A stretch of DNA of 43,215 nt, taken from UHGV virus genome UHGV-0324072; one strand, given 5' to 3'. This DNA is from a virus. Shown here piece by piece: positions 2,127 to 17,383 of the stretch. The notes beneath the pieces were generated by a model that ran no database searches, was not told where the DNA came from, and worked only from the letters and a program-made list of their open reading frames with translations. Each line of letters starts with the position of its first letter. Position 1 is the first letter of the stretch. The position numbers and the translations under genes are program-made.

Positions 2127-4361
2127 CTATTCCAAATCCTCCTCTGTCACCACCAGCATCTCATTTGGTTCGTATAGTGTCTTCGGCCTTAATCTATCCC
2201 CTATTCTTTCGGGTATACGATATGTTCTCGGTACTACTTCGCCGTTAGCATCGCAACCAAGCATTAGTTCTCCATCTTTCAACATTTTATCAAGATGGGT
2301 GTTAGTCACAGAGAAGTCACCGGAACGAGCCACTATCTGCTGCTGAGTAAAACCGCGACCTGTGTCATCTGACTGTTGCAGGTCTTCCAGTGCCGAAAGT
2401 ATTGACTCCTTCCTTACTTCATCCCTGCCGCGTTTAACTTCTTCCTTTACTTTTTGCTTACCTTCTTTCGTCAACCCTTCTTCCCGCTCTTTCTCCTCGT
2501 CAGTTTTGAACGGCTCGAAACCCCACGGCATCAACACAAGCGCCTTGTGTGGTTCAGGAAGGTCCAGGTTTACGATTGTGCCGTATTCTTCTGTGCCCCC
2601 CAGGAACTCAACCGCACGGTACTCTTTCGGCGGCGGAGCTTCGCGGAACTGCACAGACTCCAGCACCATGCCAACCGTTTTCTGTTGAGGACCGTGCTTA
2701 AATTTCGAGTGGTATACGTTTATTTGACGGTCGGTTGCACGTTCGATTGTCAGTTCCACGTCAACACCCGCATACAGCGCCCCACTGCCGCGTGCTTTCT
2801 TTCCGCCCTTCTGCGTATGGTGGACAACGCCTACTGCGGCTTTAGTTGCATCGCGTACTTCTTTCAGAATGGCGATAACTTTACCCATGCCGATTGCTGT
2901 TGATGAACTGTTCTCGTCGAACTTATCAATCGTCAGTGCCAGGGTCTGGTTAAGGGTGTCGAACGCAACCATGCCAATTGGCTCGTCGCCAGCAGTTTCG
3001 CGCATTAACTTAATCAGGCTTTTAAGTTTGCCGACTTCGCCCATATCGATGACGTGTACATAATCTTTACCTTCCCCGCCATATTTAGCCGCTAGTGCAT
3101 CAATACGGGTGCGTGTAGCTGCGCCACCCTCACCATCAATATAGAAATGGTGGCAACGCTGGGTATCCGCCCCCGCAAACCTGTACCCGGCGGCGCTGAG
3201 GTACATCATCCCCAGCGTATAGAACGATTTGTACGTGCCAGATTCCCCGACGATATCCCAGATACAATCCGACGGCATGTACCCCTCAACGACGAAATCA
3301 GCCTTTACCGGCTCCGGTAACTCGTCCCCCTCTGAGTCCTCCTCTGAGTCCTCGTCGTCTTCCAGGTCGTCGAGGCTGCAAGTTACTGGGTCCTCGTTCT
3401 CTGTGCGGTGTAGTTCTTCAATCTCTTCTTCCGGTAAATCAGGCAGAGCCGCACGAATGCTGTTAATGCTGATAGGTTGCTTGTCTACGTTAAGCTCGTC
3501 TGGCAGGCCGCACATACGCAGGGCCAAATGCTGTCGGCGGTTAAGCTCGGTGCAAGCGCCGTTGTTTGTATGCTGGCAGACAAAGCGCACTTCTTTACCG
3601 TCGAGCATTATGCTGGTGGAGCCCTTGCCTGTATGCAGATGTTCGTTAGGGCATGGCACTTCGTACCCGCGCCCGGAAGATAAAGCGTCAAGGCCAAGCT
3701 CGGCTTCGCAGAAGTGTGCTATATCCGCGTTAAGCCCATGCTCATCAGCGGCAAGTGTTTTAGCCTCACGCTTACGCAACCCCATCTCTTCGGCTTTCTT
3801 GATGTACCGCTCGGCACGGATAACACGCCCTTCTGTAACCGTTATCTTCGACTCTTTGTGCGGCAGGTAGATAAGGCGGTTGCCATCTTCCGTGCAGTGG
3901 TCGCGCAACGCTTCGTCTATTTCTAACTCTGCACAAATAGCACGTTGCACCATCCACGCGTCGTTAGAGTTAAACGGCGTGCGAGCTGGAACCAGAACGC
4001 GGAAAGCGTAATCTCCGTTTTTACACACATGCTGATGCGATGCCGTTGTATGCAGAATATTGAAGAACGGTGCGTTCTTGAATTTGCGGGTAAGGTCGCG
4101 GTACTGAGTACGGTTGAGATGGTCAAAATCGAACTTAACCACACTGTCTTCCAGAATAGCGTTCTTACGGCGACCGCCAACAGGCGCAATAGCTTTCTGT
4201 TTAATCTTGGCCGCGTCGTACTCTTCCTTAGTCCATGACGGGTCCACGGATAAACGCTTCGATGTATCGCAGACATACTCCACAAACTGCTCGAGCGGCA
4301 TCTCACGCGCTACAGGGTTTTTATCGAATGTGTTACGCAGCGTTGCAAAAACAATATTCAT
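2127..4361 (-). CDS. DNA primase/helicase fusion (N-terminal primase-polymerase-like region, C-terminal RecA-fold replicative helicase)
   Basis: 744-aa ORF; Walker A-like GESGTYKSF, RecA/DnaB-like helicase segment; Cys/His-rich zinc-binding-like central region; C-terminus VVTEEDLE. Confidence 0.7.
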   Translation of the reverse strand: MNIVFATLRNTFDKNPVAREMPLEQFVEYVCDTSKRLSVDPSWTKEEYDAAKIKQKAIAPVGGRRKNAILEDSVVKFDFDHLNRTQYRDLTRKFKNAPFFNILHTTASHQHVCKNGDYAFRVLVPARTPFNSNDAWMVQRAICAELEIDEALRDHCTEDGNRLIYLPHKESKITVTEGRVIRAERYIKKAEEMGLRKREAKTLAADEHGLNADIAHFCEAELGLDALSSGRGYEVPCPNEHLHTGKGSTSIMLDGKEVRFVCQHTNNGACTELNRRQHLALRMCGLPDELNVDKQPISINSIRAALPDLPEEEIEELHRTENEDPVTCSLDDLEDDEDSEEDSEGDELPEPVKADFVVEGYMPSDCIWDIVGESGTYKSFYTLGMMYLSAAGYRFAGADTQRCHHFYIDGEGGAATRTRIDALAAKYGGEGKDYVHVIDMGEVGKLKSLIKLMRETAGDEPIGMVAFDTLNQTLALTIDKFDENSSSTAIGMGKVIAILKEVRDATKAAVGVVHHTQKGGKKARGSGALYAGVDVELTIERATDRQINVYHSKFKHGPQQKTVGMVLESVQFREAPPPKEYRAVEFLGGTEEYGTIVNLDLPEPHKALVLMPWGFEPFKTDEEKEREEGLTKEGKQKVKEEVKRGRDEVRKESILSALEDLQQSDDTGRGFTQQQIVARSGDFSVTNTHLDKMLKDGELMLGCDANGEVVPRTYRIPERIGDRLRPKTLYEPNEMLVVTEEDLE
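2130..2147. repeat. 18-bp exact repeat TTCCAAATCCTCCTCTGT (second copy 42550..42567), encoding C-terminal TEEDLE of two replication proteins
   Basis: identical nucleotide strings at both gene 3' ends. Confidence 0.8.
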
Positions 4362-4486
4362 TTCTTTTTCTCCGCACGTTCTAAGGCTTCCTGCATACGG
4401 CGCATTGCGCGGTTCATCTTTACCGGTGCGAAGAAGTCAGCGCCGTGTTTCTGGCGGCGTAGCTGTGGAACTATTAACTTTGTCAT
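4358..4486 (-). CDS. small basic protein (42 aa) translationally coupled to primase/helicase start
   Basis: ATG at 4486 with AAGGA RBS; stop overlaps primase ATG (ATGA); below the 60-aa track cutoff. Confidence 0.35.
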   Translation of the reverse strand: MTKLIVPQLRRQKHGADFFAPVKMNRAMRRMQEALERAEKKK

Positions 4487-4526
4487 TGTATAATCCTTAT
4501 GCTTACTTTGATGATTTGTACTTTAG

Positions 4527-4558
4527 CCCCGACGTTCTGGCGTTGGGGTTTCTTTTTA
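4527..4558 (+). terminator. plus-strand hairpin plus T-run inside a minus-strand gene block
   Basis: CCCCGACG-ttctgg-CGTTGGGG then TTTCTTTTT; T-run only on plus strand. Confidence 0.3.
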
Positions 4559-4846
4559 CCGTTTAGCCAACCCTTCCAGCAAATTTTTATACTCTTCAAA
4601 ATATTCCTCGACCAAATCATCGCCGAAATAGAAGTCGATATACTCGAGATTATCTCTTACGTTAAGCGATGCCGACATGGTGCTTAGTTGGCGTAAGCTA
4701 ATTAGCTTCATTTCTGTTTCTACGCAGAAAGGCCGGTAGGTATCAAGATGGCAAGAGATATTGAAGCATAAAGCGAACTCTCCGGCCACGGAGTGAACCA
4801 TATACACTTCGTTTTCTGCTTTATTGTGGAAAATTACGCCTTTCAT
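4556..4846 (-). CDS. hypothetical protein (96 aa), coupled to AlpA-like regulator gene
   Basis: ORF track; ATG 4846 overlaps stop of upstream gene (ATGA). Confidence 0.5.
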   Translation of the reverse strand: MKGVIFHNKAENEVYMVHSVAGEFALCFNISCHLDTYRPFCVETEMKLISLRQLSTMSASLNVRDNLEYIDFYFGDDLVEEYFEEYKNLLEGLAKR

Positions 4847-5025
4847 TTCACGTTCTCCTTAATCCATGCTTCGACTTTATTACGGTCAAATGTTCCCGGT
4901 AAACGGCGGCCCATAACCTTAATACAGCAGTCAGGGAATTTGCCGCTGCGCAACCAGTTATTAATGGTCTGACGTGTCACCCCGATACGCTCGGCTACCT
5001 CATTCTGTGTCATGTAATGTTGCAT
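4843..5025 (-). CDS. AlpA/excisionase-family HTH DNA-binding protein (60 aa)
   Basis: ATG at 5025 (RBS AGGGGA); MTQNEVAERIGVTRQTINNWLRSGKFP typical AlpA-type HTH; track start is an upstream alternative codon. Confidence 0.55.
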   Translation of the reverse strand: MQHYMTQNEVAERIGVTRQTINNWLRSGKFPDCCIKVMGRRLPGTFDRNKVEAWIKENVK

Positions 5026-5056
5026 TTTTATATCCCCTGTTTGTTTAGTGAAACCG

Positions 5057-5085
5057 AGTATAGGATAGCGGGAATGTAAAAGCAA
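5057..5085 (-). promoter_or_regulatory. candidate sigma70 promoter for AlpA-like operon (TTGCTT-N17-TATACT, minus strand)
   Basis: rc of 5057..5085. Confidence 0.4.
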
Positions 5086-5122
5086 CCAATCCCTGCAATA
5101 TTTAATCTTTACAAAAAAGTTA

Positions 5123-5152
5123 TTGAAAGTTCTTGACACATGTTTGTATAAT
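5123..5152 (+). promoter_or_regulatory. candidate sigma70 promoter (TTGAAA-N18-TATAAT) facing a 350-bp ORF-free region
   Basis: TTGAAA 5123..5128, TATAAT 5147..5152. Confidence 0.45.
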
Positions 5153-5159
5153 GGTTTTG

Positions 5160-5380
5160 GGACTTGTATATATTACGGAGTTGACGAACCCTCCCCGAGG
5201 GATTCGTCAACCCCTCCCAGACAGCTGAGATGCTTGCCTTGTGGTTTAAGGATAAGTGTATCTAAATCTCATTTAAAGAAGTAACCCGCTGAAATATCTA
5301 CTGTTTCTTAATGTGCCGTAGATTCGCAACCGTAAAAATGTAACGATTATTGGGCAGGCCCTAAGCCTGCCCTTTAGTTA
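5160..5380 (+). ncRNA. candidate small non-coding RNA between promoter 5123..5152 and terminator 5353..5380
   Basis: no ORF over 11 codons on plus strand; 13-bp stem-loop 5181..5210 near the 5' end; GGGCAGGC-ctaa-GCCTGCCC plus TTTAGTT terminator at 3' end. Confidence 0.25.
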
Positions 5381-12992: not shown

Positions 12993-14462
12993 ATGTTAAC
13001 TATGCACGGTCAGAATCAGGGTGTTAAGACAAAACACCGGGAATGGCTGCATCACTTCGATAAATGGCAGAAGGTGCGCCACGCACTGGAAGGCGACCTT
13101 ATTCGCTACCTCCGTAATGTAGGGAAGAACGAGCCAGACCCTACCTACGCAGCCCAGCGCCAGGAAGAATACGAGAACGGTGCTATCTGCTACAACTTCA
13201 CAAAACGTACCCTGGCCGGGATGGTGGGGTCGGTGATGCGCAAAGACCCTGAGCAGATTATCCCGCCTGAACTGGAGTACCTGTTACGCAATGCTGACGG
13301 TTCCGGTGTCGGGCTGTGGCAGCACGCGCAGGACACTTTGATGGAGATTGATTCTGTGGGTCGTGGCGGGTTGCTGGTGGACGCCCCGGAGACAGCCGCG
13401 GCAACGGCGGCAGAACAGAACGCGGGGTTATTAAACCCGGTCATAGCATTCTACACCGCTGAGAACATCATCAACTGGCGACTGACTCGCATCGGTTCTG
13501 TTAACCGTGTGACGATGGTTGTGTTGCGCGAGGTATGGGAATACTCGGAACCGGGCGCAGAGTTCGAAACAAAGTTCGGGGAACAGTATCGTGTTCTTGA
13601 CCTGATTGAGGGCCGCTACCGCCAGCGCATTTACCGCTTCGATGCCGAAGGTGGCGCTCAGGACGAAGTAATCGAAATCTTCCCGGAACTTGGCGAACAG
13701 TTACGCGGCAAAATCCCGTTCACATTCATCGGGGCAAGCAACAACGATGCGACCATCGACGATGCTCCTTTGCTGCCGTTGGCTGAGCTTAATATCGGGC
13801 ATTTCCGCAACAGCGCGGACAATGAGGAGTCGAGCTTCGTTGTAGGCCAGCCCACGCTGTTTATCGCCCCCGGCGAGAACATGAGCATGGAACAGTGGAA
13901 AGAGGCCAACCCTCACGGTGTGCGCATGGGGTCGCGCTCAGGCCATAACATCGGTTACGGAGGTAATGCGTTTCTTGTCCAGGCGGGGGAGAATAACCTT
14001 GCCAAGCAGAACATGCTGGATAAAGAGAATCAGGCAATCCAGATTGGCGCACAGCTTATCACCCCGACGCAGCAAATCACCGCAGAATCGGCCCGCCTGC
14101 AACGCGGCGCTGATACTTCAGTTATGGCGACAATCGCGCGTAACGTAAGCATGGCGTATACAGACGCGTTGCTCTGGGTAGCTGCGATGCTCGGATTGCG
14201 TGAAGGCACAGAGGTTGATTTCAAACTGAATATGGAGTTCTTCCTGCAACCGATGACCGCTCAGGACCGTGCACAGTGGATGGCGGACATTAACGCCGGT
14301 TTGCTACCCGCCACTGCTTACTATGCTGCGTTGCGTAAGGCGGGTGTAACTGACTGGACTGACGAGGATATTCAGAACGCTATCGAGGATGCGCCTCTGC
14401 CGTTAGGTGCTGTTACTCAGGTGGCAGGGGAGATTCCGCAGTCGGTGCAGCAGCAGGAGTAA
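12993..14462 (+). CDS. portal protein
   Basis: 489-aa ORF directly after terL; RBS AAGAGGA; called by position and size. Confidence 0.65.
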   Translation: MLTMHGQNQGVKTKHREWLHHFDKWQKVRHALEGDLIRYLRNVGKNEPDPTYAAQRQEEYENGAICYNFTKRTLAGMVGSVMRKDPEQIIPPELEYLLRNADGSGVGLWQHAQDTLMEIDSVGRGGLLVDAPETAAATAAEQNAGLLNPVIAFYTAENIINWRLTRIGSVNRVTMVVLREVWEYSEPGAEFETKFGEQYRVLDLIEGRYRQRIYRFDAEGGAQDEVIEIFPELGEQLRGKIPFTFIGASNNDATIDDAPLLPLAELNIGHFRNSADNEESSFVVGQPTLFIAPGENMSMEQWKEANPHGVRMGSRSGHNIGYGGNAFLVQAGENNLAKQNMLDKENQAIQIGAQLITPTQQITAESARLQRGADTSVMATIARNVSMAYTDALLWVAAMLGLREGTEVDFKLNMEFFLQPMTAQDRAQWMADINAGLLPATAYYAALRKAGVTDWTDEDIQNAIEDAPLPLGAVTQVAGEIPQSVQQQE

Positions 14463-14467
14463 AGAAA

Positions 14468-14487
14468 AAGGCCCCGCTAGGGGCCTT
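14468..14487. terminator. bidirectional hairpin terminator AAGGCCCC-gcta-GGGGCCTT
   Basis: perfect 8-bp GC-rich stem between convergent genes. Confidence 0.6.
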
Positions 14488-14491
14488 AGCT

Positions 14492-15145
14492 TTAACGTAT
14501 ATTAGCCGCACATTTACGCACAACCCGAGGTATCGCCTCTTTCAGTTCACCCCATGTATTAACGGCCTCCATGTCAAGAAGTGTCACCAGAGCTTTCTGG
14601 ATGTCACTTCGCAACTGATTGGTCTTCGCATCCTGAGAGTCCCATGTATCGAAACCCGTTACGTCGCGGATATCTACGGATTCCTTTACCGCTTTAGCCA
14701 CCTGTATGAAGTGTCCACTGTGGCCAATTCTTCCCTCCGTGCGCTCAATCATTCGACTAACGGCAGCGTTAAGCTCGACAAAGCTCACCGCGCCAATGTT
14801 TCGTAGTTCTACCTGCCGTTGTGTGATAAAGCGGTCGATAACGAGGAAATGGAAATAGGCGCTGTATTGCTCAGCAATATATACTGCCAGATGGAGACAT
14901 GCAAAGGTGCGACCGTTTCGGCCTTTCGTCGCCCTTATGGCATTCTCGATTCCGAGTTGTTTTTCGCATTCCTCCTTGAAAATCTTGAAGCCATCCGTTG
15001 CCATGACCTGGCGAAGCTCTCTTGCCCCCATGCCGTTGTCTAAACGCCAACGGTTCATCTGGTCAACCAGCTCGTTTACGTTAATAAAGTTTTCACGGTC
15101 AAAAGTGATTTCTCCATAAGGGAACTCTAATGTTTGCAGTTTCAT
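14492..15145 (-). CDS. KilA-N domain protein (217 aa), reverse-oriented insertion
   Basis: KGRNGRTFACLHLAVYIAEQYSAYFHFLVIDRF resembles the KilA-N core; ATG 15145 with AGGAG RBS. Confidence 0.5.
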   Translation of the reverse strand: MKLQTLEFPYGEITFDRENFINVNELVDQMNRWRLDNGMGARELRQVMATDGFKIFKEECEKQLGIENAIRATKGRNGRTFACLHLAVYIAEQYSAYFHFLVIDRFITQRQVELRNIGAVSFVELNAAVSRMIERTEGRIGHSGHFIQVAKAVKESVDIRDVTGFDTWDSQDAKTNQLRSDIQKALVTLLDMEAVNTWGELKEAIPRVVRKCAANIR

Positions 15146-15172
15146 GCGTATTTCTCCTGTTTAAGTGTACGT

Positions 15173-15202
15173 TTAAATTCTACATTTGAATGTAGAATTT
15201 AA
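15173..15202. promoter_or_regulatory. perfect 13-bp-arm palindrome (candidate operator) upstream of KilA-N gene
   Basis: TTAAATTCTACAT-ttga-ATGTAGAATTTAA; overlaps candidate minus-strand promoter TTGATT-N18-TAGAAT (15177..15206). Confidence 0.5.
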
Positions 15203-15287
15203 TCAAGCTCTTTTTAACCTTAAATGTGTATGATTATGCCAATACGTTACCGACTGATATGATTGTCATATCGAAACAGGAGGGTAT

Positions 15288-16331
15288 ATGAGCTTACTGA
15301 CATCTCTAATCAGCCACCAGATTTGGCTGCAACGCGCCGCATCCGGTGAAGTAAAAGACCTCGCACCATTCATTCAGGAAATGCGGGACGAAATCAAACG
15401 GCAGGTGCTGTTATTCGGTGACGACGGTCGCAGCACTGCGCGACTGAATAAACTGTTACGCGACCTGGAAGAAGCACTAACCGGTATTACGGGTGGCTGG
15501 CAAACAAAGCTAACAGACGACCTTAAGGAACTGGCGGCGTACGAGGCTGAGTGGAACGTAAAGACACTGACCGCCAACGTAGACGCGGAATTTGTTACGC
15601 CTACCGCTGAGCAGGTATGGGCCGCTGCCGAGTTTCAACCATTATCATTGAGCGACAAGCCCGTTGATTTCACCAAGCTGATGTCTGGATGGGGCGAAAC
15701 GGAAGTAGCACGTCTTGTAACTGGAGTTAAGATGGGCTTTGTGCAAGGTCAAACCACACGGCAGATTGTTAAGAATGTTGTTGGCGCTGGTGGACTAGCC
15801 GACATCTCAGAACGTAACGCGACTACGGTAATCCGCACCGCGCTGTCCCACGTATCCAACGAGGCCCGTAACGAGACGTACCGCCAGAACGACGACATCA
15901 TCGAGAAATATGAGTGGGTGTCAACTTTGGACAGCCGTACCAGCACGATTTGCAGGGCCAGAGACGGAATGACGTGGGAAATCGGTAAAGGCCCGATGCC
16001 ACCAGCCCATCCTAATTGCCGAAGTACCACTGCACCGGTAATCAGTTCAGAGTTCGACTTCCTTGATAAAGGCGCAAAACGTGCGGCTAAGGGTGCGGAC
16101 GGCGGTACTCAGGTAAGCGCAGACACCACCTATTACGAGTTCCTGAAACAACAACCAGCATGGTTTCAGGACCAGGCGCTCGGTCCTGTTCGCGGTAAGA
16201 TTTTCCGTAACAGCGGTATATCGCCGGAAGAGTTTCGCGTAATATCTGTAGATGGTTTCGGGAATCCGCTCACGCTTAAGCAGATGGCGGAACTCGATAA
16301 ACGTGTTGCTGATTATCTGAAAGGGGATTAA
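15288..16331 (+). CDS. head morphogenesis / minor head protein
   Basis: 347-aa ORF after portal; RBS AGGAGGG; called by position. Confidence 0.55.
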   Translation: MSLLTSLISHQIWLQRAASGEVKDLAPFIQEMRDEIKRQVLLFGDDGRSTARLNKLLRDLEEALTGITGGWQTKLTDDLKELAAYEAEWNVKTLTANVDAEFVTPTAEQVWAAAEFQPLSLSDKPVDFTKLMSGWGETEVARLVTGVKMGFVQGQTTRQIVKNVVGAGGLADISERNATTVIRTALSHVSNEARNETYRQNDDIIEKYEWVSTLDSRTSTICRARDGMTWEIGKGPMPPAHPNCRSTTAPVISSEFDFLDKGAKRAAKGADGGTQVSADTTYYEFLKQQPAWFQDQALGPVRGKIFRNSGISPEEFRVISVDGFGNPLTLKQMAELDKRVADYLKGD

Positions 16332-16821: not shown

Positions 16822-17025
16822 TCAACGGAATTTTGTGTTTAAATCCTGCTCATGGACAACCCTCAGAACAGTGTCATAATCCCCGTATCTTCCAGGTTCA
16901 AATATATCTAATGCCTTGTAAGCAGACATTGCGTCAGGGAAAACCTGCAGAACCTTTTTAACCCGGCACAAGTCACCGTCGAACTCTTCATCGAACTCTT
17001 GAACTACTTCGCAAATTGCATACAT
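16822..17025 (-). CDS. hypothetical protein (67 aa), reverse-oriented insertion with own promoter
   Basis: ATG 17025, RBS AGGAGG; promoter 17053..17081. Confidence 0.5.
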   Translation of the reverse strand: MYAICEVVQEFDEEFDGDLCRVKKVLQVFPDAMSAYKALDIFEPGRYGDYDTVLRVVHEQDLNTKFR

Positions 17026-17149: not shown

Positions 17150-17182
17150 GACTTTTCACTAAAAATATGATAAGCTCCACCT

Positions 17183-17383
17183 GAGCTTGTGAAGTATGAA
17201 CAAGCGACCGCGGCGCGGGCAGGTAACGGAGCGGGACGTAAGTCCTGAGTGTAGTTACGCTGACGCGTTCGGAAGGGCCATACTCTATTGCTTGTGTAAA
17301 AAGTAACTGGTTTACTGAGATTACGCCGTTTCTATGTTTAAATGATAAGGACTAGCGCCCCGCTTTATGGCGGGGCTTTACTT
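17183..17383 (+). ncRNA. candidate small RNA or leader transcript, ending at terminator 17357..17383
   Basis: about 200 bp with no ORF over 37 codons, between candidate promoter (TTGACT 17148 / TAAGCT 17171) and GCCCCGC-tttatg-GCGGGGC plus TTTACTT. Confidence 0.2.

Follow-up and report, generated by a model that had tools for sequence, protein, structure and literature searches.

The 43,215-nucleotide virus genome UHGV-0324072 (hereinafter the window, meaning this whole stretch of DNA) carries, antisense between its portal and head-morphogenesis genes, a gene for a protein with a KilA-N domain. We propose that this gene is the cargo of a mobile cassette and that its product probably represses the cassette's own promoter via a 30-bp palindrome. 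The central evidence is that the palindrome and the DNA-binding domain change together among related phages. The window is a Guernseyvirinae-type siphophage genome, with Escherichia phage EcoPhCCP1 as its closest record (95.8% identity over the region) and Jerseyviruses at about 81-83%. The parts of the cassette are as follows:

15177..15206, minus strand: sigma-70-like promoter from the promoter scan, with a -35 TTGATT (15206..15201), an 18-nt spacer and a -10 TAGAAT (15182..15177)
15173..15202, no strand assigned: putative operator of type P1, the perfect palindrome TTAAATTCTACATT-TG-AATGTAGAATTTAA
15154..15158, minus strand: ribosome-binding site AGGAG, 8 nt before the ATG, read from the sequence and conserved in all aligned cassettes
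14492..15145, minus strand: KilA-N gene, 217 aa, ATG start, from the listing of open reading frames (ORFs)
14819..15109, minus strand: KilA-N/APSES-type DNA-binding domain, the variable half of the protein, codons 13-109
14930..15025, minus strand: putative specificity segment, codons 41-72, with residues disjoint between palindrome types P1 and P2 and a divergence peak at codons 36-80
14498..14815, minus strand: helical C-terminal domain, codons 111-216, nearly invariant and of no named family
14468..14487: GC-rich hairpin AAGGCCCC-GCTA-GGGGCCTT, lying in the 29 nt that separate the stop codons of the convergent portal and KilA-N genes

The palindrome has two arms of 14 nt each (15173-15186 and 15189-15202), 100% complementary around a 2-nt centre; a preliminary description of the window had rightly called it perfect, while giving its arms as 13 nt. 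Throughout the 43-kb window, no other short-loop inverted repeat reaches an arm length of 11 nt, and no further copy of the palindrome's half-site occurs with up to two mismatches; 0 of 300 dinucleotide shuffles of the 120-nt upstream region reach its score. The TTGATT-N18-TAGAAT promoter that the same description had seen overlapping the palindrome was recovered by the scan on the minus strand at 15206..15177. It is the only promoter-like site upstream of the KilA-N gene, and the Jersey record annotates a promoter at the corresponding place. The palindrome covers the promoter spacer and the -10, with the gene-proximal arm supplying the -10 hexamer. This geometry recurs in all palindromic cassettes, where the -35 abuts the distal arm and the proximal arm provides the -10 hexamer (type P1, TAGAAT; P2, TACCAT; P3 and P4, TAGTAT); the operator types are told apart by the dinucleotide at -10 positions 3-4.

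Among 2.9 million viral contigs (IMG/VR), the exact P1 and P2 patterns are found only on contigs carrying the gene, in one copy each, and neither 185,579 species genomes nor 5,426 E. coli genomes contain the P1 pattern. Thus, no full target is detectable other than the promoter of the cassette itself. A wider regulon, with phage or host targets bearing the full palindrome, was considered and set aside, as no copy lies outside the cassette in the window, the viral contigs, the species genomes or the E. coli genomes. The arms are identical within an operator type even as the flanks and centre drift, which is expected for recognition by a protein and not for a mere hairpin. An intrinsic terminator was likewise rejected as the role of this element: its stem is AT-rich with only 2 G-C pairs, there is no adjacent U tract, and the terminator scan makes no call. 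Together with the pairing described below, these observations support the palindrome as a sequence-specific operator over the promoter, as opposed to a generic hairpin. The centre of the palindrome is flipped between close relatives, reading TG on the plus strand of the window (15187-15188) and CA in EcoPhCCP1 (L002); likewise, the P2 centres ATAG (L016) and CTAT (L017, L048) are reverse complements of each other. These flips suggest inversion of the whole palindrome or template switching, i.e., that the palindrome is structurally active in vivo.

The preliminary description had also taken the layout to be operator-controlled, and comparison among relatives bears this out. In a sample of 29 related cassettes, which are not 29 independent events, four palindrome types pair with four subtypes of the DNA-binding domain without exception and under the same promoter geometry, while a fifth subtype lacks a palindrome:

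P1: AAATTCTACATT-N2-AATGTAGAATTT; residues 41-49 onward [A/T]RE[L/I]RQVMAT; 7 cassettes
P2: AAATGGTATAT-N4-ATATACCATTT; residues 41-49 onward FKHLRQLMTT; 9 cassettes
P3: TAAATACTAC-N8-GTAGTATTTA; residues 41-49 onward TKNLSQLLATEQAK; 2 cassettes
P4: GAATACTA-N10/11-TAGTATTC; residues 41-49 onward [E/V]KNLSQLLSTEQAR; 4 cassettes
Type B: consensus promoter TTGCAT-17-TATAAT without a significant palindrome; residues 41-49 onward LQPRNLAQILKT; 7 cassettes

In three pairs compared, P1 and P2 cassettes diverge in two patches, one over the operator (12-15 differences per 30 nt at -75..-45) and the other at codons 36-80 (9-15 per 30 nt). The roughly 115 nt between them, from -15 to +100, show 0-8 differences per 30 nt, mostly 1-5. 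The residues disjoint between P1 and P2 cassettes are confined to positions 41, 42, 43, 47, 49, 67, 68 and 72, with none in the C-terminal half. P1 and P2 are each present both in the portal/Mu-F slot and in a slot between tape-measure and tail genes; as the pairing holds across phage backbones, the binder appears to travel with the cassette. Here we depart from the preliminary description, which had also suggested an XRE regulator as a binder: the palindrome type tracks the cassette across backbones, and the likely binder is the cassette's own product.

Several loci retain remnants of displaced modules. In the phages AG11 (L005) and AKM_CE (L003), a gene-proximal P1 with a ruined -35 (TCGGTT) lies behind a complete P2 promoter; L038 keeps a degenerate P1 with its untranslated region and a ruined ATG upstream of a P3 promoter; and upstream of its P2, S106 (L049) retains a type-B promoter along with a truncated gene start. 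Such scars show, at the level of sequence remnants, that operator and domain modules have been replaced as units. In Salmonella phage S119 (L051, MH370372 3350-5038), two KilA-N cassettes of different specificity stand in tandem, both antisense to the structural genes, with orf4 being of type C' with a P4 palindrome and orf6 of type B without one. From the covariation we infer that the operator and the recognition segment (residues 41-72) form matched, distinct pairs P1-P4 that are swapped as modules on a constant C-terminal domain.

The protein's direct match to PF04383 (E 4.6e-4, 20.4 bits, aa 13-105) falls below the gathering score of 23.8 bits, but the KilA-N-like core proposed earlier is upheld by relatives and by structure. 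A family profile retrieves 139 cluster representatives, mostly of 200-230 aa, that match both halves of the protein, and 37 of 50 relatives aligned over their full length match PF04383, with a best E of 7.1e-18. Other sources name the same protein cluster 'KilA-N domain-containing protein'. In the AlphaFold2 model of the 217-aa protein (predicted local distance difference test score, pLDDT, 91.1), the predicted fold is of the alpha/beta kind and, like the DNA-binding domain of Mbp1, combines two paired helices with a beta-hairpin wing. The segment of codons 41-72 aligns to Mbp1 residues 22-89, which we take to be helix A, helix B and the beta-hairpin wing. The cassette protein may be presumed to bind DNA, for which the covariation of residues 41-72 with the upstream palindrome is indirect evidence. 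Residues 13-90 split into types A, B and C, while the C-terminal half is nearly invariant across the family. The latter, an all-helical region of about 105 residues, finds no family match in Pfam, NCBIfam or PADLOC; it probably acts in dimerisation and/or as an effector. Ratios of nonsynonymous to synonymous substitution rates (dN/dS) of 0.02-0.12 in both halves indicate strong purifying selection. Positive selection on the DNA-binding domain was considered and rejected (dN/dS 0.04-0.10, with dS saturated between types); the saturation implies that the types are old alleles reshuffled by recombination.

The same two-domain module has a wider existence in nucleases. Relatives of 286-375 aa, including P0043, P0049, P0075 and P0091, carry the KilA-N and helical domains behind a GIY-YIG, T5orf172 or MUG113 domain. 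That the module constitutes the non-catalytic part of these enzymes implies that it serves in DNA targeting. The window protein begins directly with the KilA-N domain and has no catalytic domain of the GIY-YIG superfamily. The idea that the cassette is a decayed homing endonuclease was rejected in view of the strong purifying selection and the wide conservation (342 phage genomes). The comparison also covered seven genes at 25-30% identity, one belonging to a Vibrio phage and the other six to unrelated metagenomic contigs. Four of them have an unrelated, statistically exceptional palindrome of their own, which lies 20-75 nt ahead of the start codon and whose score is reached by no more than 3 of 300 shuffles; two of these palindromes visibly overlap TTGAC-type promoter hexamers. 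One metagenomic contig (L020) has two paralogous members of this distant family about 1 kb apart (3001-3651 and 4703-5356) beside an HNH gene, each with a different long palindrome at its own promoter.

The distribution of the cassette is wide and patchy at once. A tblastn search finds a homologue in 342 phage records, of which 335 are of Salmonella and 3 of Escherichia phages, and all but two are at least 60% identical. The flanking portal/head region is matched by 101 Escherichia phage records and 11 more named Kagunavirus, but only 3 Escherichia records have the gene. The cassette is thus missing from most E. coli Kagunaviruses and near-universal in Salmonella Jerseyviruses; the latter points to an old mobile resident and not a recent one-off insertion. 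In the Kagunavirus ST20 (L028, 40801-40968), the same slot holds an unrelated acidic 55-aa antisense ORF with the shared terminator hairpin, and homology between ST20 and the window ends right after this hairpin and restarts at the head-morphogenesis start codon. A second context is seen in 45-48-kb ViII-E1/IME207-like phages, where the cassette, from -35 to terminator, lies antisense between the tape-measure and minor-tail genes. In a third (L040), a 70%-identical protein is encoded upstream of terS in another phage contig, on the same strand as its neighbours. In L040 (2340-2500), the half-site (G/A)TACTAC, common with P3, occurs twice in direct orientation, and the promoter is bracketed by a second inverted repeat, TAGAACTATT / AATAGTTCTA. 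The variable slot, the patchy presence among relatives, the different filling in ST20 and the three genome contexts agree with the earlier view of an accessory, reverse-oriented gene. Judged by its predicted signals and these comparisons, the cassette is an autonomous, mobile transcription unit in a variable slot. The portal/head-morphogenesis slot seems to accept reverse-oriented cargo in general.

The downstream boundary of the cassette was described beforehand as a bidirectional terminator at 14468..14487. On the minus strand the hairpin is canonical, being called by the terminator scan with 8 pairs and the tail TTTTTCTTT. The plus strand, with the weak T tail TTAGCTTT, was not called by the scan, so that the term 'bidirectional' is plausible but backed by the scan on one strand. 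The predicted folding energies are -17.8 kcal/mol (minus strand) and -18.5 kcal/mol (plus strand). In ASO78B, the corresponding hairpin bears a terminator annotation for both strands, and the hairpin is kept in ST20, which lacks the KilA-N gene. We conclude that it is the terminator of the cassette and possibly terminates the portal transcript too.

Bringing these elements together, we posit that 14468..15206 would constitute a 'moron'-type unit of sigma-70 promoter, palindromic operator, ribosome-binding site, one gene and terminator; in the window and in the second of the three contexts, this unit runs antisense to the late structural genes on either side of it. The gene might be expressed early by the host RNA polymerase. 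Its product would bind the 30-bp palindrome, most likely as a dimer that is probably held together by the helical domain. As the palindrome fills the spacer and its proximal arm coincides with the -10, binding would exclude RNA polymerase and result in negative autoregulation. Such autorepression would hold the protein at a low, fixed level.

Several considerations weigh against this proposal. The operator and gene are only 30-60 bp apart, such that some co-inheritance is expected from linkage alone, and the 29 cassettes, being related, overstate the number of independent events. The seven type-B cassettes have no significant palindrome, their best 6-nt-arm match not exceeding shuffles, and three of the seven distant relatives lack an exceptional one; hence, palindromic autoregulation is not universal in the family. 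The half-site shared by L040 forms a direct and not an inverted repeat. Autoregulation alone explains neither the near-invariant C-terminal domain nor the presence of at least four specificity types among near-identical lytic phages. As to the timing of expression, the transcriptome paper on the Kagunavirus vB_Eco_K1B4 and its supplements do not identify the gene, which most Kagunaviruses lack, and the EcoPhCCP1 paper does not discuss it.

Could the palindrome instead be the operator of another regulator, either a small helix-turn-helix (HTH) or XRE-type phage protein or a host factor, with the KilA-N protein having a different target? Small HTH regulators do exist in related genomes, namely the 'excisionase and transcriptional regulator' of EcoPhCCP1 and the DicA-like repressor of ST20. 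However, ST20 has its DicA-like gene without the palindrome or the cassette, and the palindrome type follows the cassette and the domain subtype across backbones, while differing between near-identical ones. Moreover, distant relatives in unrelated contigs carry palindromes of their own, and a host factor does not require four different sequences in phages of one host genus. We consider this explanation improbable. We give slightly less credence still to a palindrome acting only via secondary structure, whether as a cruciform or an RNA hairpin, which could be a terminator or stabiliser of plus-strand read-through transcripts or a recombination or replication signal. The symmetry is indeed kept from P1 to P2 through compensatory changes in both arms, hairpins of -12.8 and -15.2 kcal/mol are predicted (z -4.4 and -5.2), closely related phages differ in the orientation of the asymmetric centre, and one record annotates the equivalent site as a terminator. 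Yet the two G-C pairs of the stem, the missing U tract and the lack of a terminator call speak against it, and the predicted transcription start lies after the palindrome, so that the sense mRNA begins downstream of it and cannot contain or form the hairpin. Further, a pure hairpin would drift by compensatory changes, whereas the four arm sequences are discrete and identical within a type, and it predicts no link to protein residues 41-72.

A different function altogether would be self-recognition comparable to the BstA/aba system (discussed below), with the C-terminal domain being an effector that interferes with the DNA of a competing phage or the host, and the palindrome marking 'self' by titrating or switching off the protein. 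Autoregulation would then be a by-product, and the diversified pairs would stop related phages from exploiting each other's immunity. What recommends it is the constant C-terminal domain combined with at least four matched domain/palindrome pairs among near-identical phages: these pairs, the S119 tandem cassettes of different specificity and the scars of displaced operator modules look like conflict-driven turnover of specificity. Against it, the saturated dS between types points to old reshuffled alleles rather than rapid positive selection, and the carriers are virulent Guernseyvirinae and not prophages. The aba element has terminal direct repeats and extends partly into the gene, while here an upstream palindrome sits on the promoter and is already explained by autoregulation. 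No defence model in PADLOC 2.0.0 is matched at a meaningful level, the best hit being PDC-S22 (E 0.0023, 15 bits), with the BstA sequence itself not having been compared. On balance, we regard such a function as unlikely. Finally, there is next to no chance that the gene specifies a cell-wall amidase or lysis enzyme, as stated in GenBank records and by PHROG 6095. The protein has a full-length match to this PHROG (E 9e-121), which is labeled 'amidase', as are the genes in the EcoPhCCP1, wksl3 and BPS11Q3 records. However, no amidase or other catalytic family is detected in Pfam, NCBIfam or PADLOC, and the fold lends no support. In the closest genome record, some 38 kb separate the endolysin and holins from this gene, which sits between those for the portal and head morphogenesis. 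In one record, that of BPS11Q3, the label has evidently been copied by similarity, its note reading 'similar to AFO12337.1'.

The proposed repressor cassette has the following neighbours, the flanking genes confirming the reported placement of a minus-strand 217-aa ORF (14492..15145) between plus-strand structural genes:

12993..14462, plus strand: portal gene, from the ORF listing
15288..16331, plus strand: Mu-F-like head-morphogenesis gene, from the ORF listing
15236..15263, plus strand: divergent promoter-like site ATGCCA-16-(TG)TATGAT before the head-morphogenesis gene, from the promoter scan; taken here as a neighbour of the cassette

The sequence block of the last site is conserved among the window, EcoPhCCP1, Jersey and AKM_CE, but cassettes in the tape-measure/tail context lack it in their upstream region. 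At 15256-15272, the -10 of this site (TATGAT) is overlapped by a small perfect palindrome, GATATGA-TTG-TCATATC; the counterpart in Jersey is not palindromic, and hence it may be a chance occurrence. The adjacent Mu-F gene encodes 619 rather than 347 aa in some Jerseyviruses, with an intein (PF14890, Intein_splicing), for example in L042 (463-2322) and L047 (BPS11Q3 2967-4826). Phage Jersey has a reverse-oriented 'Hef-like homing endonuclease' gene, Jersey_03 (L001 1-35), directly upstream of the portal gene. Within the plus-strand structural module of the window, a second reverse ORF of 67 aa (16822-17025, minus strand), unannotated in EcoPhCCP1, has a promoter-like site (17193..17164) and a terminator-like site (17188..17172) nearby and is possibly a further small gene carried as cargo. 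In these phages, several antisense mobile genes reside in the terminase-portal-head region.

These observations have implications beyond the locus itself. An operator can be assigned, at least putatively, to a phage KilA-N protein by covariation; a specificity code is, by the same comparisons, readable from natural variants; and the module is mobile among the structural operons of virulent phages. The four natural operator/domain pairs, differing at eight protein and three half-site positions, provide a ready orthogonality matrix, and P1-P4 are possibly a set of small orthogonal repressors. The 'amidase' annotation is in our view wrong. Its spread through PHROGs and phage records, several of them from work on phage therapy or biocontrol, makes these genomes appear to carry a second lysis enzyme that does not exist. 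The presence of a mobile and probably self-regulated cassette within the structural operons of virulent Salmonella and E. coli phages is relevant to phage-phage competition and to the safety assessment of therapeutic phages. If, by analogy to BstA and against the odds as we see them, the cassette were a device of phage-against-phage interference, its C-terminal domain would attack or silence DNA lacking the cognate palindrome, whether of co-infecting Guernseyvirinae or of the host. The matched pairs, the S119 tandem and the operator scars would in that case record an arms race among lytic phages in competition; the system would be the first of its kind in strictly lytic phages, and no earlier KilA-N protein would have had a DNA code that is both defined and reprogrammable.

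KilA-N is among the most widespread DNA-binding domains of DNA viruses and is the ancestor of the fungal APSES cell-cycle factors. To our knowledge, no phage KilA-N protein has a defined target sequence, and we found no literature linking KilA-N to Jerseyvirus, Kagunavirus or Guernseyvirinae, or defining an operator for a phage KilA-N protein. The window protein is a member of the KilA-N/APSES superfamily (PF04383), alongside phage P1 KilA, poxvirus N1R/p28 and fungal Mbp1/Swi4/Bqt4, but differs from other KilA-N proteins in its C-terminal fusion, which is an unnamed helical domain in place of KilA-C, RING or ankyrin. For Deinococcus DdrC (PDB 7qvb), at 14% identity, no relation is detected at the sequence level and homology is not established.

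With the GIY-YIG/T5orf172/MUG113 nucleases the window protein shares the KilA-N and helical module, while it is devoid of their nuclease domain. The use of domesticated DNA-binding modules of GIY-YIG-type homing endonucleases as repressors is itself already known from I-TevI and CapR. The former reportedly represses its own promoter through an operator, as Edgell et al. are said to have found in 2004. CapR, a nuclease-less relative of T5orf172 homing endonucleases from PLE, binds phage DNA and represses a capsid operon (PMC8096241). Its DNA-binding domain, however, belongs to a different fold family from that of the window protein.

In its organization the cassette resembles the morons, which Juhala, Hendrix and coworkers are said to have described in 2000 as autonomous promoter-gene-terminator units that sit between late-operon genes. 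The cassette likewise brings a promoter and a terminator of its own, lies between structural genes, is variably present and occurs in unrelated backbones. Unlike the classic morons, which are found in temperate phages and expressed from the prophage, it resides in virulent phages, has its own operator and is near-universal in Jerseyvirus. There is also a likeness to lambdoid heteroimmunity, in that matched protein/operator specificities are recombined, palindromic operators lie over the promoter and different specificities coexist, as in S119. The cassette is nevertheless distinct from lambdoid immunity modules: it involves no lysogeny, KilA-N takes the place of the HTH Cro/CI proteins, and it has a single operator and no Cro-like partner gene.

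BstA of the Salmonella prophage BTP1 is a KilA-N-containing abortive-infection protein whose gene is overlapped at its 5' end by a cognate aba element of 63 bp; BstA variants are matched by cognate aba elements that differ from one another (PMC8585504). At 307 aa, BstA is larger than the 217-aa window protein, and the 63-bp aba, with its direct terminal repeats over the start codon, differs from the upstream promoter palindrome of the cassette. A variant-specific DNA element does exist upstream of the window gene, taking the form of this promoter palindrome rather than of an aba-like element with terminal direct repeats. By analogy, BstA/aba would be the closest precedent for the matched-pair pattern of the KilA-N cassettes.

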